Assembly: GCA_035221665.1 (NCBI GenBank)
Contig: CM069174.1
Location: forward strand, 3,162,001 to 3,226,000
Length of the DNA stretch: 64,000 nucleotides
DNA from: Okamejei kenojei
Lineage: Eukaryota
Reading direction: 5' to 3'
Shown here: one piece after another, positions 13,716-58,612 of the stretch
Position numbering within the stretch: position 1 is the stretch's first letter
Layout: every line of letters begins with the position of its first letter
The notes under the pieces: generated by a model
The model's input: the letters and a program-made list of their open reading frames with translations, nothing else
Database searches by the model: none
What the model was told of the DNA's origin: nothing
Made by a program: the position numbers and the translations under genes

Positions 13716-15086
13716 CAGTGGCTTGCAAAAGTTTTCATACCCCTTGAACTTTTCCACATTTTGTCACGTTACAACCACAAACGTAAATGTATTTTATTGG
13801 GATTTTATGTGATAGACCAACAGAAAGTGGCGCATAATTGTGATGTGGAAGGAAAATGATACATGGTTTTCAAATTGTTTTACAAATAAAAAACTGAAAA
13901 GTGTGGTGCGCAAAGGTATTCAGCCCCCTTTACTCTGATACCCCTAAATAAAATCCAGTGCAACCAATTGCCTTCAGAAGTCACCTAATTAGTAAATAGA
14001 GTCCACTTGTGTGTAATCTAATCTCAGTATAAATACAGCTGTTCTGTGAAGGACTCAGGGGTTTGTTAGAGAACATTAGTGAACAAACAGCATCATGAAG
14101 CCCAAGGAACACACCAGACAGGTCAGGGATAAAGTTGTGGAGAAGTTTAAAGCAGGGTTAGTTTATAAAAAAATATCCCAAGTTTTGAACATCTCACGGA
14201 GCACTGTGAAGCTGGATCCACATCATCCGAAAATGGAAAGAGTATGGCACAACTGCAAACCTACCAAAACATGGCCATCCACCTAAACTGACAGGCCGGG
14301 CAAGGAGAGCATTGATCAGAGAAGCAGCCAAGAGGCCCATGGTAACTCTGGAGGAGCTGCAGAGATCCACAGCTCAGGTGGGAGAATCTGTCCACAGGAC
14401 AACTATTAGTCGTGCACTCCACAAATCGGGCCTTTATGGAAGAGTGGCAAGAAGAAAGCCATTGTTGAAAAAAAGCCATAAGAAGTCCCGTTTGCAGTTT
14501 GCCACAAGCCATGTGGGGGACACAGCAAACATATGGAGGAAGGTGCTCTGGTCTGATGAGACCAAAATTGAAGTTTTTGGCCTAAATGTAAAACGCTATG
14601 TGTGGCGGAAAACTAACACTGCACATCACCCTGAACACACCATCCCCACTGTGAAACATGGTGGTGGCAGCATCATGCTGTGGGGATGCTTTTCTTCAGC
14701 AGGGACAGGGAAGCTGGTCAGTTTGATGGGAAGATGGATGGAGCCAAATACAGGGCAATCTTGGAAGAAAACCTGTTAGAGTCTGCAAAAGACTTGAGTC
14801 TGGGGCGGAGGTTCACCTTCCAGCAGGACAACAACCCTAAACATACAGCCAGAGCTACAATGGAATGGTTTAGATCAAAGCATATTCGTGTGTTAGAATG
14901 GCCCAGTCAAAGTCCAGAACTAAATCCAATTGAGAATCTCTGGCAAGACTTGAAAATTGCTGTTCACAGACGCTCTCCATCCAATTTTGCAAAGAAGAAT
15001 GGGCAAAAATTTCAGTCTCTAGATGTGCAAAGCTGGTAGAGACATACCCCAAAAGACTTGCAGCTGTAATTGCAGTGAAAGGTGGT
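13716..15086 (+). mobile_element. Tc1-family DNA transposon, frameshifted DD34E transposase, right end lost
   Basis: TA|CAGTGGCTTGCAAAAG left end; inner direct repeat at ~13909-13930; ORF pieces 14095 (MKPKEHTRQVRDKVV), 14312 ([19 protein letters not shown]), 14680 (QQDNNPKH...SPELNPIE, 34 residues between D and E); fused to a SINE at ~15086. Confidence 0.92.
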
Positions 15087-18787: not shown

Positions 18788-19191
18788 AGTCAGGTCAGGT
18801 CGGGGGGGGGAGTTCCCCCCGCCACGGGTACCATGTAATCCCGTGCTACCCGCTCCATGGTCGGATAGTTGGTGACTAAACCGTCTCCCCCACCTGGTTT
18901 GCCAGGTGAGGAGGGGGCTGTGGACCCCCAGCAGGACCAAAACTAGACCAGTCAAATGGCAGATGAGCCCCTAGCGAGCCAACGGCCATCCACACTTCAG
19001 TAGAAGTTGCGATCACTGTCGTACATGGCATAGTAAGGAATTATGATAAATCGCACATGTACCAACATCCTATACTTCCAGCGGTGGAAGTCGGCAGCAA
19101 CTGGAGGACAGAGATGTGTGGTGCGTCCGTCACCGTTCCCGTCGGAAACCAGCACCACTGTGTTAATGTTTTCAACGATGATGATGTTGAT
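18788..19191 (+). mobile_element. Unclassified ~400-bp retroposon with (GAT)n tail, inserted into a V-SINE
   Basis: SINE sequence on both sides; imperfect TSD GGATTTATCC / GGTTTTCTCC; GATGATGATGTTGAT tail. Confidence 0.6.
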
Positions 19192-20484
19192 GGTTTTCTC
19201 CGGGCGCTCCGGTTTCCTCCCACACTCCAAAGACGTGCGGGTTTGTAGGTTAGTTGGCTTCGGTAGGATTGTAGATTGTCCCCTAGTGTGTGTGTGTGTG
19301 TGTGTGTGTGTGGGATAGTGCTCGTGTGATCGCCGGTCGACGTGGACACGATGGCCGAAGGGCTAATCTCTAAAGTCTAAAGTAAAGAATGGTTCAGGTC
19401 ACGTTTGGTGGGAATGGTGATGGAGGCGGGAGAGCAGCAGTTCGTTAGTGAAATTAGATCAATTTGTGGGATTCAACAAAAGTATTTGAAAGAGAAAAAA
19501 AATTCCAGAGCTAGTTAGAGAAAGAGGGGTAGTAGGACTGGCTGGATAGCCAGTACAGCATCAGCGGACTGAATGGCCTCCTTCCTTGCCATAACTTCTG
19601 TGATTTTATAAGTAGCTTAATATATGCAGAGTGATGGACTATCCTTGAGTTCCAGAAGCTGGTAAGACATGGCTGGATAGAGAACTCTTAGAAATCTTAA
19701 GGTATGTGGTCTTCTCTGTAATTAGTTAGAGATAAAAGCTTTGCATGTAAATTCAGTTTGAAGTAGTGCGCTTTGCCACAAAAATTTTAAATGCAAACTT
19801 CTCAATTTTGCTCTTCAACCTCCTTAAGCACGGAGGACATGTATTTATTTTTACCAACTGATACCCAGAATACAAAAAAAAAGAGTCTAATGGGGAACAT
19901 TATGAAGAAGATGTTGACAGCAAGAACATTGCTCTTTTATCTTTGATCCGGATTTGAATCTTGCTAAGCGAGATCAAAGGCTACCCTCTCTTGAAGGGCT
20001 GATAAAAAGGTCTTAAATGAAGCTGAAATGGGCCAATTTGAATCAATTGCCCAGTAGATATGGATAGACAACACGAAGCTGGCCTTCCAATCAGCACAAT
20101 TGCCATTAGTTTATTAATCTCGATGGGAGAGTTATTAATAGCGCAGGAGGATGTATAATTCACGTTCGCCAAACACCAGCATCTTTCCAAGAATGGAGCT
20201 GAGCCTCAGGGTTGCAGCGTTGAAGAAACAAGTCGCACATTGATTATGACTTGTACTCGTGACTTGCTACTTCCCTGCAGGAAATGGCCACTCCAATCAC
20301 TCGAGGGCAGCACGGGGGCGCAGCGGTAGAGTTGCTGCCTCACAGCGCCAGAGACCCGGGTTCCATCCTGACCACGGGTGCAGTCTCTATAGAGTTTGTA
20401 TTGTGATCCGTGTGGGTTTTCTCCGGGTGATCCTCCCACGCTCCGGGTTTGTAGGTTAATTGGCTTCTGTAAAACTGCCCTGAT

Positions 20485-20820
20485 GGTGTTGCAGTCACAG
20501 TCACAGAGGCCGACGTCAGAACATCCTTCAGGGTGGTGAACCCTCGGAAAGCGCTTGGACCAGATGGTATACCCGGTCGAGCTCTCAAAACCTGTGCAGA
20601 CCAACTGGCTGGAGTTTTTGCGGACATTTTCAACCTCCCACTACTAAGGTCTGAGGTTTCCACCTGCTTTAAGGGGGTATCAATAATACCAGTGCCCAAG
20701 AAGAGTAAGGTAAGGCCTCAATGACTGTCGACCGGTGGCACTAACGTCTGTGGTGATGAAGTGCTTTGAGAGGTTGGTTATGGCGCAAATCAACTCCTAC
20801 CTCAACAAGAACCTGGCTCT
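20485..20820 (+). mobile_element. Rex1-type RT fragment
   Basis: VNPRKALGPDGIPGRALKTCADQLAGVFADIFNL...IIPVPKK. Confidence 0.85.
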
Positions 20821-21519
20821 CAATCAGGGCCGGATTTAGATGAAGAGAGGCCCTAAGCTGTTCCACTTGTGAGCCCCCCCCCAAATTCCCCACACCCACG
20901 ACTAGAGGAAGATGGAAGAGTCCACCAGATTGACACAGATTTGCAGCCGAGCGTGGCCAATGAGATAAGGGGCTGGAAAGCTGCGCGTTATTTATTTATT
21001 GCCAGTGCTAGTGTCGAGTCATCGGCTTAAAACACTACTATTCTGAAATGGAGGGCAAGGAAAATTACTGAAGGGTTGTTCAGAGACTACAGTGGGTTGT
21101 GACAGCATATGTAAGAAAGGCCTATGACAGAGTCGCAAATATTATACACCCTTGCAGGGCTCTCACTTAATTTTTTGTTCTCTGTTGCCAGCGGGGCAAC
21201 CGTGGCAGGTTTTTAAGTTGCCAAATGACAGTTTAGGTGGTCAGTTAAAACGGCTTGCATGACACGTGCGATAATGTGCTCGGACGAAGTGCGTAGTTAC
21301 CAGTCGGAATTGTGGTCAATGAAGCATTCACATATTATTTCTGCTCCAAATAAAGTCACAAACTAAACATATTCACCAATCAAGACATGATATATACCAC
21401 AATGACATGCAGCAAAATTATAATACAGTATCTCAACTCTTTTTACACGTTGCAATTAATGCAATTTCTATTATCTCTTTCCACTTCCAATCAAAAATAT
21501 GGTTATTCAGTGTATAATC

Positions 21520-22365
21520 AACCTCGGTGAGATCAAGCGCAGGCTTGGCGATCGCTTCGCACAACACCTCCACTCAGTTCGCAATAACCAACCTGATCTC
21601 CCGGTGGCTCAACACTTCAACTCCCCTTCCCATTCCGAATCCGACCTTTCTGTCCTGGGCCTCCTCCATGGCCAGAGTGAGGCCCACCGCATATTGGAGG
21701 AGCAGCACCTCATATTTGCTTGGGTAGTTTACACCCCAGCGGTATGAACATTGACATCTCCAATTTCAGGTAGTCCTTGCTTTCTCCCTCCTTCCCCTCC
21801 CCTTCCCAGCTCTCCCACAGCCCACTGTCTCCGCCTCTTCCTTTCTTTTTCGTGTGTGTCCCCCCCCCCCGACATCAATCTGAAGAAGGGTCTCAACCCG
21901 AGACGTCGCCTATTCCTTTGCTCCATAAATGCTGCCTTACCCGCTGATTTTCTCCAGCCTTTTTGTCTACCAATGGGATCCCACCGCTGGCCACATCTTC
22001 CCATCTCCTGCCCTGTTGGCTTTCTGCAGAGACCGCTCCCTCCGTAACTCCCTGGTCAATTTGTCCCTTCCCACCCAAACCACCCCCTCTCCTGGCACTT
22101 TCCCTTGCAACCGCAGGAGATGCTACACTTGTCACTTTACCTCCCCCCTTGACTCCATTCAAGGACCCAAGCAGTATTTCCAGGTGCGGCAGAGGTTCAC
22201 CATGGCCAGAGTGAGGCCCACCGTAAATTGGAGGAGCAGCACCTCATGTTTCGCTTGGGCAGTTTACGCCCCAGCGATATGAACATTGACCTCCAATTTC
22301 AGGTAGTCCTTGCTTTCCCCTCCCCTTCCCAGCTCTCCCTGAGCCCACTGTCTCTGCCTCTTCCT
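21520..22365 (+). mobile_element. Penelope-like element fragments (GIY-YIG region and terminal repeat, tandem)
   Basis: GEIKRRLGDRFAQHLHSVRNNQPDLPVAQHFNSPSH; PGTFPCNRRRCYTC; degenerate hammerhead at 21880-21907. Confidence 0.85.
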
Positions 22366-22736
22366 GGGCATGCATATCTCTGAAGATCTTTCATGAACCC
22401 AGCACACTGATGCAATTATAAAGAAAGCACATCAAAACCTTTGAACAGAGACGGACTGAGCGTGCCCTTTATGTGCGCACACTACTATGTTTACAGCTAA
22501 CAGCATCAATTTATTCAAAATATAGACCATTTAAAAGGTGAAGGAAAATAAAACGATGAGGAAACTAATGCAGTTTAGCTCATGCTGAGCCAGGCATTTT
22601 CACCAGGAAGGCAGAGAATGGACAATAGTTACCCACTAAATGTCCATCTCAGTTATTGACAGCAAAGTGCTCACTCTGTCTTGGAATAGCATTGCGACTG
22701 CAAGCAGCCCTATCAAAAATAAACACACAAACAGTA

Positions 22737-23040
22737 GGCGGCACGGGGGCGCAGCGGTAGAGTTGCTGCCTCACGGCGCCAGAGACCCGGATTCCATCCC
22801 GGCTACGGGAGCTGTCTGTATAGAGTTCGCACATTGTCCCCGTGACCTGCGTGCGTTTTCTCCGAGATCTTCAGTTTCCTCCCACATGTACAGGTTTGTA
22901 GGTTAATTGGCTTGGTGTAAATGTAAACTGTCCCTAGTGTTTTTTAGGATAGTGTTAGTGTGCGGGGATCGCTGGTCGGTGCGGACTCGGTGGGCCGAAG
23001 GGCCTGTTTCCACGCTGCATCATCTAAACTAAACTAAACC
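22737..23040 (+). mobile_element. V-SINE (HE1-like)
   Basis: Consensus match with (AAACT)n tail. Confidence 0.85.
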
Positions 23041-23427
23041 CGATCACTGTGGTTGTCATCTTTCCTTTACTGATGCATTTTTAATACTTTGCATCCCGCT
23101 GCAAGCCGTTGGAGATGCAGCCTTCTCCAGAGAAGGACTAGAGTTCTCAACTCCCATCTCAATGTCCTCGTACAGATATTAATGTTAAAGTACGAGCAAG
23201 GAAACAATGATGTATTATTTAGGCTTCATAGACTTGTCTACTTCAAGGAGACCCACTTAAAACGAGCCAAGGGTTTTGTTTGACAACATTTTAAATCAAG
23301 AAGGATTTGTTCGGGTATTTTTTGTCAAGCTGAGAGTAAGTGTCTCTGATCTGGCCACTGGATTGAGAATACTTTTGCGTGCCGATCCTCCTGACCTTTG
23401 CCCTTCGGCACTCGTCAAACAAATGAC

Positions 23428-23727
23428 GGCACGGTGGCGCAGCGGTAGAGTCGCTGCCTCACAGCGCCAGAAACCCGGGTTCCATCCTGACTACGGGCGC
23501 TGTCTGTACGGAGTTTGCACGTTCTCCCCGTGACCTGCGTGGGTTTTCTCCGAGATCTTTGGTTTCCCCTCACACTCCAAAGACGTGTAGGTTTGTAGGT
23601 TAATAGGCTTGGTGTAAATGTAAAATTGTCCCTGGTGTGTGTAGGGTAGTGTTAGTGTGCGGGGATCGCTGGGCGGTGCGGACTCGGTGGGCCGAAGGGC
23701 CTGTTTCCATCTAAACTAAACTAAACC
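23428..23727 (+). mobile_element. V-SINE (HE1-like)
   Basis: Consensus match with (AAACT)n tail. Confidence 0.85.
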
Positions 23728-25624
23728 AGATCACTGTTGTTGTCATCTTTTCTTTGCTGATGCATTTTATAAGAAAAGGGATTGAAGACTAAGTCAAAGT
23801 CAAGGAGGGTCATTGACATGAAATGTTAACTCTGATTCTCCTCCACAGATGCTGCCTGGCCTGCTGAGTATTTCCAGCATCTGCAGTTGTTTGCTTCAAT
23901 AATTTTGTCCTTGACCGCAATGTTTCTTTTTTTTCCGGTTGTACTGCTGTCAATGTTTTCATATTTTGTCACCTTAATATGACAAAATCCCTCTGTTTCT
24001 GCAAACTTTCTTCATTGTAGCAAATATTATTATTTTTGAACTGAAAATATAACCAAACGAGCTCGCAGCTCCACTGTGGTCATGGACGATCACTTGTCTT
24101 TTCTATTGTAGCTCATAGACTTGATAACATAAAACGCTCTCATGACTTTGTTCCTCAGGCTGCATTATATTTGGCTGCAAGTCTCGTGCAGAATTCATAC
24201 GCCTGTCGACAGGGTTGGATATTTCCACTAGGATGATAGTTCCCTTGGTCGGGATGTCTGGGACCAGGGACCACAGTCTCAAGATATTCAGGACTGAGAT
24301 GAGACCATCGTCCACAGGTCATTTGAGCAGAATTAGGCCATTCGGCCCACCGAGTCTATCTTTCCCTCTCAACCCCATTCTCCTGCCTTCTTCCTGTAGC
24401 CTTTGACACCCGTACTAATCAAGAATGTGTCAACCCCCCTCTTAAAAATACCCACTGACTTGGCCTCCACCGCCGTCTGTGGCAATGAATTCTACAGATT
24501 CACCACCCTCTGGGTAAAGAAATTCCTCCTAATTTTCCTAAAGATAGGTCCTTTAATTCTGAGGCTGTGGCCTCTGGTCCTAGACTCTCCCACTCGTGGA
24601 AACATCCTCTCCACATCCACTCTATCCAGGCCTTTCACTATTCTGTAAGTTTCAATGAGGTCCCCCCTCATCATTTCTAAACTTCGGTGAGTACAGGCCC
24701 AGTGCCGACAAACGCTCGTCATATGTTAACCCACTCATTCCCGGGATCGTTCTAGACGATGAGGAGAGTGAGAAGGAACCCTCCTTGTGCGGGAAGCTGC
24801 AGAGAGGAGGATGGGGGGAGTCGGCAACGGCGGCGGGCTAGGGGCCCGGTGAGAGGAACCGGGGAGGGGGGGTCTGACCTTCCCCGCGCTCGAGGTTAGC
24901 TGCAGGAGGCGCCCGTCCCCCAGGGAACGAGTGCTGGCGGGGGCCGGGCGAGGAGAGGGACAACGGACTGGAGGCGACGGCTGCAACGGGCCTTCGTGGC
25001 CAATTGTAGCTGGGGACTGGGAAATGGCCCCAAACCCTGGCCACTCTTGTATACAGACTCAGTGGGCATGTTCTACATAGAAACATAGAAAATAGGTGCA
25101 GGAGGAGGCCATTTGGCCCTTTGAGCCAGAACCACCATTCAATGTGATCATGGCTGATCATCCCCTATCAATAACCCATGCCTGCCTTCTCCCCATATCC
25201 CTTGACTCCGCTATCTCTATCTAACTCTCTTTTAAATTCATCCAGTGAATCGGCCTCCAATGCCCTCTGTGGCAGGGAATTCCACAGATTCACAACTCTC
25301 TGGGTGAAAAACGTTTTTTCTCATCTCAGTTTTAAATGGCCTCCCCTTTGTTCTTGAACTCTGGCCCCTGCGTCTGCACCCTCCCAACATTGGGAACATT
25401 TTTCCTGCCAGTCCTTTTTTTTCTGTGCATTCTGTGGTGACCGTTGGATTGTGCTTTTTTCCCCTGATAGTCTTCTTGGGCTGGATGCAAAAACTATATT
25501 TCACTGTACCCTGGTACATGTGGCAGTAAAGAAACCAGTGGGTAATGTGGGTTACATTGTGGCTGTGGGCACTTTTGCAAAGGGTTGTAGGAGGGTGGAA
25601 GATATCAGATGCAATTCCAGGACT

Positions 25625-26100: not shown

Positions 26101-26129
26101 GGCCAATAATCCACATGCCAGCAGGCAAT

Positions 26130-26660
26130 GTGGGCATTGTTGTGGACATCCAGGCCAGGACAGCGTCAGTTACTGGGTGGATGGCCTTGATGCCCCCAGG
26201 GAAACGCCTAGGTGAGCAGTCATTCACGATGTGTGGGATGGTCTGGTCTGGATGTCCGCAGTCACAAGCAGGGCTGTCTGTCATCCCCCACTTACGCAGG
26301 TGATGGGCTGTTCTTGCATGGAGGGTGCGGATTCTGTTCAGCGTTAGCCATTGCCTGCGATGGAGGTCAAAACCCGGTGGTTTCACTGTAGGGTCTGTGA
26401 TGACCTCTCCGTTGTAGGTGTTGGCATCTTTCCAGGCTCTGTGCCACTCAGTCTCGGAGTCAAAGTTTCCCAGAGATTTGACGGAAGACCAGAAGGGTTT
26501 GCGGGACTTCAGGCACATGTTGGGCAGATTGTTCAAGTCAGCGTGGATGGGAAGGTCAGGGTTGGCCTCGATGATGCACCAATGATCATTTGGCTGGTTT
26601 GGTTCTTGCTGTGGTCTAGTGATCTCCCAACCATGGAATCTCCTGAAGAGAATGAGGCAT
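26130..26660 (-). mobile_element. Vingi/Ingi-like LINE C-terminal fragment with zinc knuckle
   Basis: Open minus frame DLPIHADL...LKSRKPFW...PPGFDLHRRQWLTLNRIRT...WGMTDSPACDCGHPDQTIPHIVNDC...GGIKAIH...AVLAW. Confidence 0.7.
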
Positions 26661-27089: not shown

Positions 27090-27603
27090 ACTCCAGTTAG
27101 CCTCCCTCCCTCCTTCCCGACGCACACACACACACACACACATCACAGCGAGCCGCCGGGAAGAGCTCGCTCGTTGCTCTCTGCTCCGGCTCCCACAGTC
27201 AAGCGGCTGCTGATGATCCTGTGCCGAGGCGGACGTGGGGACGAGCTCTGCTTAGCCCTGGCTGATGAGTGCGAGGAGCCTGCCATTCATCTGAAGCGGC
27301 AGATGCTCGAATAGGGGACCTGCGAGTGAATCCTGTGTATATATATATATCTCTCCCCACACACGCACACATACACACACGCACAGCAGAGCAGAGCCGT
27401 GAGACTGCGAGGAGCTGCAAGCGCTCTCCTCTCTCCTCTTCTCTCTCCTCATCCCTCATCCTCCTCTCTCCCCTTCCTATCTCCCCCATCCTCTCCTCCT
27501 CCCCTCTCCCATCCTCTCCTCTCCTCCTCTCTCCCCCATCCTCTCTCCTCACCTGCTCCGCGCTCATTCCTCTCCGGTCTCTCTCCCCGGAGGCTGCGAC
27601 CCG
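27090..27603 (+). promoter_or_regulatory. Probable promoter / 5' UTR of the ASIC gene
   Basis: TE-free, CpG-containing region directly upstream of the ATG, with (CA)n, (TA)n and a long CT-rich tract (27424-27552); transcription start cannot be placed from sequence. Confidence 0.45.
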
Positions 27604-28161
27604 ATGGATTTGAAAGGGGAGCCCGAAGATGCGGAGAGGACGCCGCCTTGCAGCGTGCAGGCTTTCGCCGGCAGCTCCACTCTGCACGGAATCAGTCACA
27701 TCTTCACCTACGGGCGCCTGTCGTTCAGGCGCGTCGTGTGGACGCTGGCTTTCCTGGGCTCCCTGTCCTTCCTCGCCCACGTCTTCGTGCAGAGGGTGAG
27801 ATACTACCTGGAGTACCCGCATGTCACCAAGCTGGACGAGATCAGCGCCTACAACCTGACCTTCCCGGCCGTCACCATCTGCAACCTCAACGAGTTCCGC
27901 TTCAGCAAGATCACCAAGAACGACCTGTACCACGCCGGCGAGCTGCTGGCGCTGCTCAACAACAAGTTCGAGATCCCCGACCCCTACGTGGCGGAGAAGC
28001 ACGTCCTGGATGTCCTGGTGGAGAAGGCCAACTTCGGCAACTTCAAGCCCAAGCCCTTCAACATGAGGGAGTTCTACGACCGGGCTGGCCATGAGATGAA
28101 GGACATGCTCCTGGACTGCAAGTACCGAGGCAAAGAATGCACCCACCAGCAGTTCCATGTC
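27604..28161 (+). CDS. asic1: Acid-sensing ion channel (DEG/ENaC family), first coding exon, 186 codons; ASIC1/ASIC1c-like 'a'-type N-terminus
   Basis: [10 protein letters not shown] (HG gating motif), TM1 [72 protein letters not shown]; strong GC3 bias; phase-0 donor GTC|GTGAGT at 28161/28162. Family assignment is firm; the paralogue is uncertain. Confidence 0.93.
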
Positions 28162-29380
28162 GTGAGTACCGCCCGCCAGGCCATGAAACTTTCCCTCGCG
28201 TCCTTGTGGGCTGGGCTCAGAGCAAAGTTGCTCGGATTGTGTTTGTGGGGCGTGCTCTTGTTTGGAGGCCCCACTCCAGTTTTGTCTGAGGCGTTTTTGG
28301 GGGGTGGGGGGATATGTATGTCCCAAACATTGCCTTGTTGCTGATTTTGACCCCTCCCCATATTCCTCCTCCGCTGGTGTTGTAAGGAGCAGTGTGTATT
28401 GTGTGTTGTTGTTGTGTCTCTGGCCTTGCCTCTCTCTCTGTGTCACGGCGACCATTATGTAGCACATGCTGGACTTGCACGGTTTGGGGGAAGGGGTGGC
28501 TGAGCCTTCGGTTTGTGAGGAGAGTGGGCAAAAAAAGTCATTAAAAAAAAACCACACAAACAGTGTTCAAACTGAAATAGAAGCCAAATGTCCATCTCGG
28601 GCCAGGCTCGGGGTTGTTGGGAAAATGCCTGTGTTAACGGGATTAGGAGGCCTACCAGTCCCTCCCATCACAGCCAGGGCTGCATGAGGAGCAGCCGAGA
28701 ACACATTTCAACAGAGCATGCAGCTAAAAGTGAAAGCTTACTGACAGCAGTGGCTACAATGTTACACATCTACATGCAACCTTCCAAGACATGGAAGTGC
28801 AGTAGCATGGATAACCATCAGCAAAGCTCCAATCAGCTTGTACAAGGATTGGGGGTGGGGTTGAGAGATTTGCAGATTACAATACAGTGAATTCCCACTG
28901 GAACATGGGAGGGAGGAACTAGGGTGAGTCCAGCATTGAGGCCAAGGTGTGCTGTACATTCTTGAATCAAGCCTTCTCCGTAAACAGGTCTCTCATTTGC
29001 GGAGATAACAAGATATCTTACTTTGTTTAAAACTGACATTGTACGTGTGTGCGTGTAAACACGGGTGACTGCTGTCATACATGTGGCTTGTTGGTACTGC
29101 TGTGATTCACCCCACTAAAGCAGCTTTTCCACCCAGGCTGGTGACCTCAGTAAGGGATTGACGAGAGCTTTCTGACATGTGCAATGAAGAGCTGAGGATG
29201 GTTTCAGAGGGTTAACTGTCAGGAGTAAATCATGTGCTTCTCAGTAAGATGTTCAGGGACAGCCACCTTGCTTTATCTGCATGTGTTACTTCAATGAGAT
29301 CTGTTTAGAAGTCGACGACAAACTTTGACGCAGACTTTCTTTCTGCACCTCCAACAGAGGGCCTTGATGTGCCAAAATGT

Positions 29381-29562: not shown

Positions 29563-31686
29563 GCAGCCTTGATGTGCCAGATCTAATTCCCTGTCTGCTA
29601 TTGACCGGCCTTAAATCACTTTGACCTCGGAAAGTGAGAGCTATTAATTTACCAATAGTTCTTCGTGTAATTCCTCTTGAAATAATAAACCCTTGCCAGG
29701 GACAAACATACAAGTCCAAGAATCTTTTCCGCTATTCGATATCCAGAGCTTTGCTCTCCAGGCAGACACGACTGCAGTTTGCTGGATGAGGTGGGTGGCT
29801 TTGTCCTTGCGTTCCAAAGTAAAGCTGGACATAGTCCCACAGCCTGCCAGAGGGAAACAATAAAATCTCAAAGCAGAATCAGCGATTTGTTTTATATATC
29901 CCCCACCCTTCCAGTATACTTTATTCGTAACATTTGCGGATATTTAATCAAAATATCACCATTCACAATGCATCAGTCCATTTTGCTTAAACGAGTTACA
30001 TTATATCACCAGCTAGACAAAAATGCTGGAGAAACTCTGCGGGTGAGGCAGCATCTATGGAGCAAAGGATTCCTTCGCTCCAGAGATGTTGCCTCACCCG
30101 CTGAGTTTCTCCAGCATTTTTGTCTACCTTCGATTTTTCCAGCATCCGCCGTTCCTTCTCCTACATTATACCAGCATGTCACCCACTTTTCATCCACATG
30201 CATTCCCAGAACGGGAAGTCCAATGGACCACGAATTTAAGTTGGACGTTGCCTCCCTCCATCTGAGGGATGTGCTTGATGTAAGGGGGCTGCTTACGACT
30301 CAATCTTCATGACGCACACCTCTACAGTACTGGAGACATTGTTCCATGAGGTCGGGTTGGTGGGGGTGGAAAGGGGAAGTGAAAGGGCTGTCTCATTTGA
30401 TCGCCACAACCTGGCTCGCTGAGCGTTAATGAGAGTGCTCCTTTGCAACGGACGGCGTGAACGGCGAGCGGTGGGGGGGGGGGCTGAGGGCACTTGGACA
30501 CATGCTCAGGAACGGGTCCGGCATTGTCATCTGACTTTATTACAGACGGACCACCGTCGTGGAGGGGGCCTCATCAGGGGGTCTCGTGACGAGCGGAGGA
30601 GGCTTGGGTTTGGGATGGCCAGCATTTCGATTCACGATCCAGCAGTGATACTCAGAGACACCGCCACAGTGGTGGACGTCTTGGAACTTTTTCGTCATAG
30701 GGAAAGTCAATTTCTCAACCATTTTGGAGATTTTTCTTTAACCAGAGCCATTGAAGGATCAAGTGGAAAAAAAGGCAGATATATAGAGTTTGAATGCAGA
30801 GCAATTGTGATCTTGTTGGATGTGCAACACCCTGAAGAGGTCCCCCCCTGCTCCTGCTGTTGTGTCCATAGGTTTTCCCTGTGTTCCAAAGAACATAGAT
30901 TGTCTGCCGTACGTCCTCATCGTTGGGAAGTCTACCCACTGAAAACCCAATGAGGTGACTCAGCAGGAAAAGGGACAATCCCAGTCTCGATTCCCCTTGT
31001 CTAGTGACTCTCCGCCGGTGCGAGGGCGGAATTGGCAAGGTTTGTCATCCCTGATCATCGTCACTGCTCGAGCTGTGCCGCAAGTGGGCGCATGGATATG
31101 GGCTGGAGCCGGCGAGCTGCTGCATGTCCTGCTGCCATCGGGCCTTGCAGATGCAGCAGAGGTGGACATGGTGGTGTCTGTAATGGAGGGACTTAGTGAA
31201 TCACTAAATGAAATAAAGTGCCTCCATACCTTTTGCTGGTTCAAAAACGACATCACAGTCAAAGGGAAATTCTGGCTGCTGTGATTATGTTTTCAGAAAT
31301 TCGTTACTTCAGCTACCAGATTTGAAATGAAATACAGAATGTGACTGAAAGCACAATACATCTGTAATTACTGAAGAATTGCCCAGTGATTGATTGTTAC
31401 AAAGGGATGACATTGAGATTAAAAGTCAGATTTTTAAAAAACTTGTAAACTCATGAGGGACAGTTAACTTGGAGAAACCAAGGCTGTGCTTAATAACGTC
31501 AACAAACTGGTCCAGGGTAGAACTAGCAGAGAGATTCTGCTGCTTGAACCACTTTTTTGGTGTTCCTCTCATTGCAAGACACACATTTTGCCCAAAGACA
31601 GTGTCTGACCCTGGCCTGACCCAATCTACACCACAATTACCCTTTGCTGTGTGTTCCCTTTGAACTATACTCTATTGCACTTCACT

Positions 31687-31828
31687 TCTTCCTCCTGCGT
31701 ATGGCGTGCACAGCCTAAAGTTGTCGGACAACTTGTTCTATTTGATCTTATTTGATGGCGCACGCCGGGTTGATTGCATTCGTTGAAACAGGGCGGACCA
31801 CGTGAAGGTCGCAATCTTCCAACCCCCG
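31687..31828 (-). mobile_element. ~140-bp non-autonomous retroposon with a 5' HDV-like ribozyme (copy 1)
   Basis: TSD GCACTTCACT (31677-31686, 31829-31838); purine (AAG/AGG) tail; homologous to the copies at 46737 and 58243. Confidence 0.88.
31772..31827 (-). ncRNA. HDV-like ribozyme motif (copy 1)
   Basis: GGGGGUUGG AA GAUUGCG ACC UUCACGU GGU CCGCCCU G UUUCAA CGAA UGCAAUC; P2, P3 and J4/2 intact, P1 with an extra base. Confidence 0.72.
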
Positions 31829-32619
31829 GCACTTCACTGTGTCAGCCTGAACGATTGTTGAGATGTTCATGTGGCGGTGGGGAACATGGTTTCTGCTGGT
31901 GTTAACTCAATTGCATAAGTGGCCTGGACTTGATGTCAAAGGCTCTGCAAGTCATGCTGCAAATGTTTTAAATTAGCAAGGAGTTATGGCAACTGGTAAT
32001 AGGTTATCGACAGAGATGTCGTTTCGAGATTGAAGACGAGATTGGAGATGGGTTGGGCAACATCCTCATATTTTTGTAACGTCTCCTGTCTTGTCATGAG
32101 AGATAACTTCAAAAAAATCTATACTTTTATCGTCGCAAACTGGTTTAGTTTTACAGTGACTAGGGGACGGAGATGAACAATAGCGCGTGCATCACCGTGC
32201 TGGGGGGTTGAGCTTTCTGACCGCGCGTTCTATTATTTTTAACAACAGAGAGAGACAAACACAGCTTCTGGTAGAAAGCAACCTATTTAAGCAAAACGTT
32301 ATTTTAGGTTCCAGTCTTTTTTTAAAACCTCATGCGGGGATAAGTGCGCAAGGTGGCAGGAAACAAGTCGCGTTTGAAATGTCACACTTATTTTCCTTCT
32401 CCCAACCAGTTTGCCCCTTCTTCTTTGATGAGACCTCTGCAGAGAGTCACTGCGCGAGCTGCAATGACTGGCTGTCTCCTCAGACTGCTGGGTTCAGCTC
32501 CCAGCTGCGGACACCAGGAGGTGCTGCTGCCGTGGTATCGCTGATCCCTCTGGTGCTTCAAAGCACACTGTCTCCTTTAACATATCTCCTGGTCCAGCCA
32601 TCAGACACCACTCCAATCC

Positions 32620-46302: not shown

Positions 46303-46736
46303 ACTCTTCAGGCAAATGATCAGTTTGCTACCCTACCACAATTTAAAATTTTTGCATGTTATTTTTTAATTTTCTTTGCTGGTACATTAATATTCACAAA
46401 GAGGAGAACAACACTAATGGCACTCCGAATGTAACCGTGTTGAGAAGATGATACCACGCCCTCGTCTCCACAGGCACGATAAATTCAGGCTTCACTCCAT
46501 GAGCAGCTTCCAGCTATTTTCCTATCCTGTCGAGCCTCGTGACGGAAAGAGCAATTCTTCAAAACATTATGTTAAACTGCTTGTGTGGAAGTTAGCGAGT
46601 ATGTCGAAGTTGTGTTGGTAACTCATAGAAACATAGAAACAGAGAAAATAGGTGCAGGAGGAGGCCATTCGTGCCTTCGAGCCTGCACTGCCATTCATTG
46701 TGATCATGGCTGATCGTCCCCAATCAATAACCCGTG

Positions 46737-46790
46737 GGGGTGGACGATTGCAACCTTCACGTGGGCCGCCCTGTTTCGACTCATGCAATC
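46737..46790 (+). ncRNA. HDV-like ribozyme motif (copy 2)
   Basis: GGGGUGG AC GAUUGCA ACC UUCACGU GGG CCGCCCU G UUUCGA CUCA UGCAAUC; P1 with G1-U wobble, 7-bp P2. Confidence 0.75.
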
Positions 46791-46875
46791 AACTCGACGT
46801 GCACAAATGGAAGATCAAATAGAACAAGTTGTCCAACAACTTTAGGCTGTGCACGCCGCACGAAAGAAGAAGTAG
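46737..46875 (+). mobile_element. 139-bp non-autonomous retroposon with a 5' HDV-like ribozyme (copy 2)
   Basis: TSD AATAACCCGTG (46726-46736, 46876-46886); tail GAAAGAAGAAGTAG. Confidence 0.9.
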
Positions 46876-47389
46876 AATAACCCGTGCCTGCCTTCTCCCC
46901 ATATCCCTTGACTCCACTAGCCCCTAGAGCTCTATCCATTAAATCCACCCAGTGATTTGGCCTCCACTGACCTCAAGGCAGTGAATTCCACAAATTCACA
47001 ACTCTCTGGGTGAAAAAGTTTTTTCTCACCTCAGTCTTAAATGACCTCCCCTTTATTCTAAGACTGTGGTCCCTGGTCATTTTTCCTGCATCTAGCTTGT
47101 CCAGTCCTTTTATAATTTTATATGTTTCTATAAAATCCCCCACTCATCCTTCTAAACTCCAGTGAACACAAGCCTAGTCTTTTCAAATACAAGCCAAGTC
47201 TTTCCAAACAGTGAGATAACATTTCTGAGGCAGTTCAGTTGCACCTTCTTTGATTTTCCGTCTCCTCCCAGCCCAGAATGGATTATTCCGAGTAAACCCA
47301 TCCTTAGAAACGATTAATACATTAGCAAGGCTTCATTTTGATGACGTTATGAGAGGGATGGGCAACGCTTGTAATGGTAGTAATGCTGG

Positions 47390-58205: not shown

Positions 58206-58233
58206 CTGAAGAAGGGTCCCGACCCGAAATGTC
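58206..58233 (+). ncRNA. Hammerhead motif variant
   Basis: CUGAAGA A GGGU CCCG ACCC GAAAU GUC; helix III palindrome altered. Confidence 0.55.
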
Positions 58234-58242
58234 ACAATAGAC

Positions 58243-58383
58243 TTCCTCGTCTTCTTTTGTGGGCGTGCACAGCCTAAAGTTGTTGGACAACTTGTTCTAT
58301 TTGATCTTCTGTTTGTGCACGTCGAGTTGATTGCATTAGTCGAAACAGGGCGGACCACGTGAAGGTTGCAATCTCCTGCCCCA
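58243..58383 (-). mobile_element. ~140-bp non-autonomous retroposon with a 5' HDV-like ribozyme (copy 3)
   Basis: TSD TCACAATAGAC (58232-58242, 58384-58394); degenerate (AAG)n tail. Confidence 0.9.
58329..58382 (-). ncRNA. HDV-like ribozyme motif (copy 3)
   Basis: GGGGCAG GA GAUUGCA ACC UUCACGU GGU CCGCCCU G UUUCGA CUAA UGCAAUC; only one P1 mismatch. Confidence 0.8.
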
Positions 58384-58612
58384 TCACAATAGACAGTAGA
58401 CAATAGGTGCAGGACTCGGCCATTTGGCCCTTCAAGCCAGCACCGCCATTCAATGTGATCATGGCTGATCATCCCCAATCAGTACCCCGTTCCTGCCTTC
58501 TCCCCATATCCCCTGACTCCGCTATCTCCAAGAGCCCTATCTAGCTCTCTCTTGAAAGTATCCAGAGAACCGGCCTCCACCGCCCTCTGAGGCAGAGAAT
58601 TCCACAGACTCA
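58384..58612 (-). mobile_element. CR1 LINE 3' end
   Basis: Reverse complement of the CR1 3' UTR with (CTATTGT)n tail. Confidence 0.88.

Follow-up and report, generated by a model that had tools for sequence, protein, structure and literature searches.

We found that a non-coding retroposon of Okamejei kenojei, present as three copies in the analyzed stretch of 64,000 nt (the window), consists of the first ~80 nt and the last ~45 nt of a resident LINE, and this bipartite, LINE-derived identity, judged from the alignment of both ends, is close to certain. Its 54-nt head is predicted to fit a minimal HDV-like ribozyme fold without P4. The family comprises at least 11,470 copies and its size is estimated at about 19,000-25,000. 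We consider it probable that the element is transcribed by read-through, cleaves itself before G1, pairs its two ends and is then inserted by TPRT with a Vingi-type protein.

Three Inserts in the Window

The three inserts that the initial annotation had reported were found at their positions, all with exact TSDs of 10-11 bp and AAG-type tails (Table 1). They had been described as lacking a tRNA-like head, and this holds: ARAGORN recognized no tRNA and the copies contain no B box, while the single loose A-box-like match, located in copy 3, takes in the flanking T. A small-RNA head with internal Pol III boxes, as in a classical SINE, is absent from the element, and an Rfam search of the window gave zero matches at the gathering cut-off and no small-RNA match. 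HDV-F-prausnitzii (RF02682; alignments viewed at E≤10) aligned over its full length with positions 58329-58382, though weakly, reaching 15.7 bits (E 0.98) where the cut-off is 44, so the element stays below the Rfam cut-off for an HDV-like ribozyme.

None of the three window copies keeps the full fold. Copy 3 had been called the most intact, a ranking that needs qualification: no window copy is intact, and an A6·C31 mismatch sits in P1 of copy 3. In copy 2, P3 is broken and A46 has changed to C, and copy 1 has an additional U within P1.

Table 1. Location of the inserts, their predicted structural elements, and the partner LINE fragment in the window.
Feature	Position	Strand	Remarks
Copy 1	31687-31828	-	Older-subfamily type; P1 with an extra U; 10-bp TSD
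Copy 1 TSDs	31829-31838 and 31677-31686		10 bp, exact
Copy 2	46737-46875	+	Young-subfamily type; P3 and J4/2 lesions; 11-bp TSD
Copy 2 TSDs	46726-46736 and 46876-46886		11 bp, exact
Copy 3	58243-58383	-	10-bp TSD, AAG-type tail; G1 = 58382
Copy 3 upstream TSD	58384-58393	-	10 bp, exact; single extra T at 58383
Copy 3 downstream TSD	58232-58241	-	10 bp, exact
Predicted 54-nt minimal HDV-like ribozyme	58329-58382	-	G1 = 58382; predicted cut 5' of G1
P1 of copy 3	58382-58376 with 58353-58347	-	
P2 of copy 3	58373-58367 with 58335-58329	-	
P3 of copy 3	58366-58364 with 58356-58354	-	
L3 of copy 3	58363-58357	-	
P1.1 of copy 3	C 58361 with G 58346	-	
Six-nt remnant replacing P4	58340-58345	-	UUCG loop, closed by one U-A pair at most
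J4/2 C-U-A-A	58336-58339	-	Predicted catalytic cytosine = C at 58339
5' arm of 8-bp end-to-end stem	58314-58321	-	From LINE 5' UTR
Family-specific junction of LINE 5' and 3' parts	58291-58303	-	~13 nt, partly local duplication; absent from LINE
7-bp hairpin across junction	58277-58293	-	5' arm absent from LINE
LINE-derived 3' end	58242-58290	-	Last ORF codons, TAG stop 58276-58274, stem 3' arm 58271-58264, AAG-type tail
Partner LINE fragment	26129-26620	-	5'-truncated, 3'-interrupted; C-terminal zinc-knuckle region

Two further coding regions were seen in the window, namely a Tc1/mariner-type transposase fragment (PF01498) at 14210-14779 (+) and a large exon of an acid-sensing/amiloride-sensitive sodium channel gene (PF00858) at 27403-28344 (+). 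No later exon motif of the sodium channel gene was found within the window, and the three copies may for that reason lie in a long intron of this gene, copy 2 (with its broken core) in sense and copies 1 and 3 in antisense.

The Partner LINE and Its Deletion Derivatives

A genome search with the ORF fragment at 26129-26620 gave 4,545 candidates; 150 were scored and 30 loci were fetched. The LINE 3' end matches the tail of the element in 25 of these 30 loci (E<0.05), and the shared 3' end of ~45 nt includes the stop codon of the LINE ORF. On the other side, the near-full-length LINE copies L108, L111, and L112 begin with the head of the element (nt 1-74 at 86-94%), and L134, framed by TSD-like repeats, is ~3.05 kb long. 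Pieces of L133 and L134 match APE and RT families and, weakly, zf-RVT, and no RNase H was found in these pieces or in the intact relatives. The latter encode single ORFs of ~1,000 aa on contigs of ~3.2 kb. Since the genomic LINE copies are broken, the single ORF is deduced from intact relatives such as P0001, which is 75% identical to the partner LINE over the RT part. A compact single ORF with APE and RT and without RNase H is the plan described for Vingi (PMC13708176); the domain plan of the partner LINE follows this description and points to a Vingi-type LINE. No named Vingi or Ingi reference protein was present among the 120 listed protein relatives.

The 5' end of the element comes from this LINE, its 3' end and tail come from the same LINE, and the coding middle is deleted. 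The LINE partner that had been postulated is accordingly identified as a resident, Vingi-type LINE of ~3.05 kb with which the element shares both ends. The concept of a stand-alone ‘ribozyme SINE’ had to be given up at the same time: because head and tail are the LINE's own ends, the element is to be seen as a SIDE/NARTc-type derivative. The 3' ends of the 30 best LINE copies are 4.7% diverged (a selected set, biased low), in a range that overlaps the age of the short family.

The LINE-type 5' UTR motif has 78 occurrences in the genome. Thirty such loci consisted of 21 short head-plus-tail loci, four that continue into the ORF, and five 5'-inverted LINE copies. All 21 short loci reach an AAG tail within 110 nt, and at least three other junctions occur among them. 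As the junctions differ among head-plus-tail loci, such derivatives have arisen repeatedly, with the whole head kept. These rarer head-plus-tail derivatives of the partner LINE, with their three or more junctions, are found among loci L237-L266.

We also observed frequent 5'-inverted LINE copies (L060, L072, L114, L115, L117, L119, L246, L259, L262; L458, L466, L470, L473), in which the inverted piece reaches G1 or nearby. This piece is only ~72-75 nt long in four of six viewed copies. The inversion pattern resembles twin-priming. An inversion hot spot at nt ~74 was considered; it is partly a short-query artefact, since several inverted pieces extend past nt 100.

Copy Number, 5' Ends, and Subfamilies

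Forty scored genome matches to copy 3 have an identity of 91-100%. Exact patterns gave 9,208 heads and 11,470 junctions in the genome (reversed controls, 0), and two cross-counts, both based on samples within the initial 14 Mb of contig C1, correspond to ~18,800 (44/90) and 24,600 (14/30) copies. Two copies were present in twenty spread 10-kb stretches of the genome. The counts include copy pairs with identical flanks (L278/L280, L305/L306, L333/L335, L334/L336), located 85-300 kb apart on contig C1, which represent segmental duplications or assembly repeats.

The 5' ends were analyzed in the first 90 of 100 listed junction matches, for which the 5' end was no selection criterion. Alignment starts at G1 in 78 of these 90 copies and within 5 nt of it in 87, the three truncated copies starting at positions 17, 36, and 59; the 5' ends are thus concentrated at G1, as the initial annotation had required, and not scattered. 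TSDs were found in 77 of the 90 copies and are mostly 9-14 bp long. Together with the 11,470 exact junctions, they show that the family has been amplified in its own right, with TSD and tail. The TSD ends at G1 (offset 0) in 32 copies, at +1/+2 (shared G) in 21, and at -1/-2 in 14. An extra G is a signature of copying capped RNA, and single extra 5' bases are a G in only two of eight cases. The base at -1 is a T in 49/87 copies (background 28%, p 4e-8), and because of this enrichment an RNA start one base before G1 is possible.

Three subfamilies can be distinguished, with divergences of 8.4% (n=8), 5.8% (n=30), and 4.1% (n=49). The oldest of them (8.4%) mostly has the U5-A pair of the LINE, and the other two have U5·G.

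The Predicted Ribozyme in the Element Head

The elements of an HDV-like fold are present in the order in which they had been claimed, and an HDV descriptor matches copies 3 and 1. It misses copy 2, whose P3 is broken, and gave 0 matches when the window was shuffled 40 times with dinucleotides preserved. The descriptor contains the loop and junction motifs of the HDV fold, in which the G1 pair, the L3 motif, and C-N-R-A in J4/2 make up the core. All three core features occur in the element, and the motif definitions agree with the Rfam consensus lines. Of 24 parsed heads, 22 have a 6-nt linker at the place of P4. Pseudoknots are outside the model of ViennaRNA, which rated the stability of four sequences as ordinary (z -0.60, -0.19, +1.09, and +0.08) and folds the head of copy 3 alone as another hairpin.

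Among 87 sampled copies, 34 (39%) retain the complete set of 18 pairs together with the core bases. The putative catalytic C and the core are the majority state in every subfamily, and subfamily-level changes within nt 1-54 are confined to the tolerated positions 8, 32, and 45, the first located in J1/2, the second turning U-A to U·G, and the third being the N of C-N-A-A.

The first strand of P1 had been given as GGGGCGG, with the deviating copies explained as CpG-decay products of a perfectly paired CGG. Neither part of this reading is borne out. The P1 of the family is GGGGUGG/CCGCCCU, in which U5 forms a wobble with G: among 87 unbiased copies, 84 have T at position 5 and none has C. Decay of a CpG should yield similar numbers of TGG and CAG, and we rejected this ancestry, since the first 100 listed heads contain 98 TGG, one CGG, one TAG, and no CAG. 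CGG heads number 396 (4% of 9,208); because they are spread across all subfamilies (29 viewed), they are recurrent changes and not the ancestor. The parent LINE has a U5-A pair and the family a U5·G wobble, so P1 passed from U-A to U·G. C5 and A6 of copy 3 are private changes that leave a P1 mismatch. As a separate observation, the 396 listed T-to-C changed heads are apparently clustered near contig ends, perhaps as a result of GC-biased conversion.

Covariation Across Five Vingi-Like Families

Copies from one master cannot show covariation, and other LINE families were therefore examined. With a distant APE query, three additional Vingi-like families came to light in 30 loci, with exact head counts of 22, 13, and 14. 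The other four Vingi-like families have about 30-45% protein identity to P0001, and their 3' ends differ in sequence. Families 2-4 each start at G1 of their own HDV-like fold, which has a long P4 region; this region measures 16-44 nt in the other families compared to 6 nt in the element. The five family heads have the fold and the core bases in common and share little other sequence. An Rfam search (18.7 kb) returned no ribozyme match at E≤1 for the heads of families 1-4.

The HDV descriptor was loosened once family 2 had been seen. It then matched seven of 20 fetched elements, the remaining ones being mutated or truncated, with 0 matches in 3.6 Mb of shuffled sequence and 0 in a 200-kb genome sample (in which it missed two degenerate copies). 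A metagenome search for relatives gave two loci, neither of which matches the HDV descriptor, and a search of viral sequences gave none. The 5' UTR of a distant metagenome relative (L267:400-510) contains element-like P2 arms and a P3/L3-like hairpin, with no clear P1.

The covariation in P1-P3 that had been called for was found. With family heads parsed by hand-set anchors and majority states compared over five families, the CPEB3-like family (described below) being the fifth, 90/90 pairs hold and two-sided changes occur at 14 of 18 positions; partner shuffles gave a mean of 63.4 and a maximum of 77, and 90 was reached in 0 of 20,000. P1.1 covaries as well, from C-G to U-A across families, which completes a double pseudoknot of P1, P2, P3, and P1.1 with covariation. 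Since all 90 pairs hold with two-sided changes, the fold is under selection in the LINE clade, and cleavage by the fold may be inferred from the family. Families 2 and 3 and the CPEB3-like family also yielded one short head-plus-tail copy each (L424, L417, L471), with a TSD-like repeat in L424.

Probable Pairing Between the 5' and 3' Parts

The 3' half had been described as a 10-bp stem enclosing a hairpin. The inner hairpin arose at the junction and has no LINE counterpart. The enclosing stem has 8 bp in copy 3, and the 10-bp version as written is found in no single window copy. Because its arms come from the LINE's 5' UTR and its 3' end, it would correspond to an end-to-end pairing in the 3-kb RNA.

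For the five families, the 30 nt after P2 were compared with the last 40 nt, windows that were chosen after the data had been seen. The longest Watson-Crick end-to-end stems are 8, 6, 8, 7, and 8 bp, and the 20 cross-family pairs have stems of 3-7 bp (mean 4.7; rank test p 0.0008). Single-shuffle p-values range from 0.009 to 0.12 and combine to about 1e-4. The stems of families 3 and 5 are based on one 3' end each, and two stems overlap palindromes; the stem of the element family does so. By duplex energy, families 3 and 4 alone stand out (z -2.4 and -3.9), while the element family is weak (z -0.9) and its head side pairs better with a non-cognate tail. Overall, 5'-3' end pairing in Vingi RNA is likely on the basis of these comparisons.

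Possible Link to the CPEB3 Ribozyme

Of 59 scored candidates in the genome, 42 match the CPEB3 ribozyme model (RF00622), 30 of them above the cut-off and the best at 66.8 bits. No match was found in 14 control genomes, a set that may hold no animal. Twenty RF00622 loci were viewed: L461 continues into same-strand Vingi-like coding sequence, L456 and L459 have the 5' region in common with L461, and six of the 20 are inverted and adjoin Vingi-like coding sequence. At least three Vingi-like head subtypes above the RF00622 cut-off were observed among L456-L475 (e.g., G000:C14:40547617-40547690).

Repbase Vingi-2_Gav is shown over its first ~73 nt in the supplement of PMC5786205. Compared by eye, this 5' end closely follows the RF00622 consensus, and the head of a sister family resembles it; no remark on the likeness was found in the accessible part of PMC5786205. 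The element itself has the L3 sequence of CPEB3 and the single Watson-Crick P1.1 pair, but differs in its P2 and P3 sequences, lacks P4, and gives no RF00622 match. In mammals the CPEB3 ribozyme (RF00622) occurs once, within an intron; the element has ~20,000 copies. The near match of the sister heads to the CPEB3 model suggests where the CPEB3 ribozyme probably originated. In the literature we found no Vingi origin for CPEB3 and no paper pairing CPEB3 with Vingi, and the accessible part of PMC8233481 yielded nothing on origin or retrotransposition.

Mode of Amplification

Element copies start at G1, share their ends with the LINE, and carry TSDs (mostly 9-14 bp) and AAG tails, and the fold of the head covaries across LINE families. 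In the mechanism that we favor, a host promoter would drive read-through transcription of a copy. The ribozyme would cut 5' of G1 and remain attached, giving the RNA a compact 5' end without a cap, the 5' UTR remnant would pair with the 3' end via the short stem and thereby offer both ends to the LINE protein, and the APE/RT protein would nick the DNA and reverse-transcribe from the AAG tail. With a length of ~135 nt, nearly all copies would be full length and the whole ribozyme would be re-created each time. That nearly every copy is complete could explain why the short form is more than a hundredfold commoner than full-length LINE heads. Mobilization in trans by the LINE protein is inferred from the shared ends.

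An alternative that we rate as unlikely, yet worth keeping in mind, is a dual head like Pr77 of L1Tc/NARTc, in which most transcription would start from an internal Pol II promoter, leaving the ribozyme only to trim read-through RNA; if so, the element would not be promoter-independent. In L1Tc, ribozyme and internal promoter lie in one 77-nt stretch (PMC3383444), Pr77 acting as both (PMC3383444; PMC4035085), and Ingi and Vingi are described as sister clades (PMC5786205; PMC13708176). An internal promoter predicts 5' ends at G1 equally well, and ~20,000 dispersed copies would be reached more easily with a promoter of their own. Against a dual head speaks the finding that the five families conserve fold and core bases but little else in their heads; the rarity of an extra G at the 5' ends is a weak argument in the same direction.

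It is considerably less probable that the head is kept as a structural 5' module (for exonuclease protection or protein binding) and has no useful cleavage rate after the loss of P4 and the gain of the U·G wobble. The shrinkage of P4 relative to the other families, the weak Rfam score, and the lack of an energy signal would fit such a module, and the R2 ribozyme fold is reported to protect 5' ends too (PMC13708176). However, the autonomous LINE carries the identical 6-nt linker, P4-less HDV-like ribozymes cleave efficiently (PMC10879173), and the catalytic C and core prevail in all subfamilies. A classical Pol III SINE whose small-RNA head looks HDV-like by chance is hardly credible: size, copy number, TSDs, and LINE-derived tail are all SINE-like, but there is no tRNA, B box, or Rfam small-RNA match in the element, the descriptor found nothing in 3.6 Mb of shuffled sequence, and the reading is refuted by the head being the LINE's own 5' end.

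Relation to Known Systems and Significance

For NARTc, RIME, and R2 SIDEs, the basic mechanism has been described before. In trypanosomatids, NARTc (L1Tc), RIME (Ingi), and the SIDERs are likewise short and non-coding, with two ends of an Ingi-group LINE and an HDV-like cut at +1 (PMC4035085; PMC3383444). Compared to these, the element has an animal host, a Vingi-type partner without RNase H, a length of ~135 nt, and ~20,000 copies, and its head is a predicted ribozyme of 54 nt without P4. R2 SIDEs and R2/R1 SIDEs of Drosophila resemble the element in that only the ribozyme and the 3' end are kept, with several independent origins, and cleavage by the R2 SIDE ribozyme has been demonstrated (PMC3414825). 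R2 SIDEs are 28S-specific, rare, and about 500 nt long, whereas the element is genome-wide and very abundant (PMC3414825 for R2 SIDEs). Derivatives of Vingi-1_EE in hedgehog also arose by internal deletion of a Vingi LINE with the 5' end kept, and bipartite non-autonomous LINEs are known from RTE, Ingi, Vingi, and R2 (PMC5786205).

The predicted fold is similar to drz-Mtgn-1 and the theta ribozymes, which have no P4, a catalytic C in J4/2, and a cut at G1 (PMC10879173). About 99% of these minimal ribozymes came from gut phages, often beside tRNAs (PMC10879173), while the heads described here belong to an animal retroposon. HDV-like ribozymes have been described in metazoan LINEs and SINEs (PMC6765202, PMC8256844). 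In the literature we found no report of the element family or of Vingi ribozymes, although Repbase, Dfam, or patents may hold one, and none of a P4-less form at such copy number in an animal or of a 5'-3' stem in Vingi.

We give slightly better than even credence to a broader proposal, in which the Vingi clade consists of ribozyme-headed RNAs with pairing ends, the element is their minimal cis unit and, among P4-less HDV-like ribozymes of animals, the most abundant, and the CPEB3 ribozyme goes back to a Vingi 5' end that was domesticated, not to a host invention. With sister Vingi heads well above the RF00622 cut-off, the origin of the CPEB3 ribozyme becomes directly testable. The repeated natural deletions show which ~135 nt are sufficient in cis, a likely 5'-3' stem included, and this is relevant to templates for Vingi-based gene writing (PMC13708176). 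Should the head cleave, introns and intergenic DNA of the genome would contain minimal self-cutting RNAs by the thousands, a ribozyme form known mainly from phages would head a vertebrate-type retroposon, and Vingi would join the ribozyme-bearing LINE clades.
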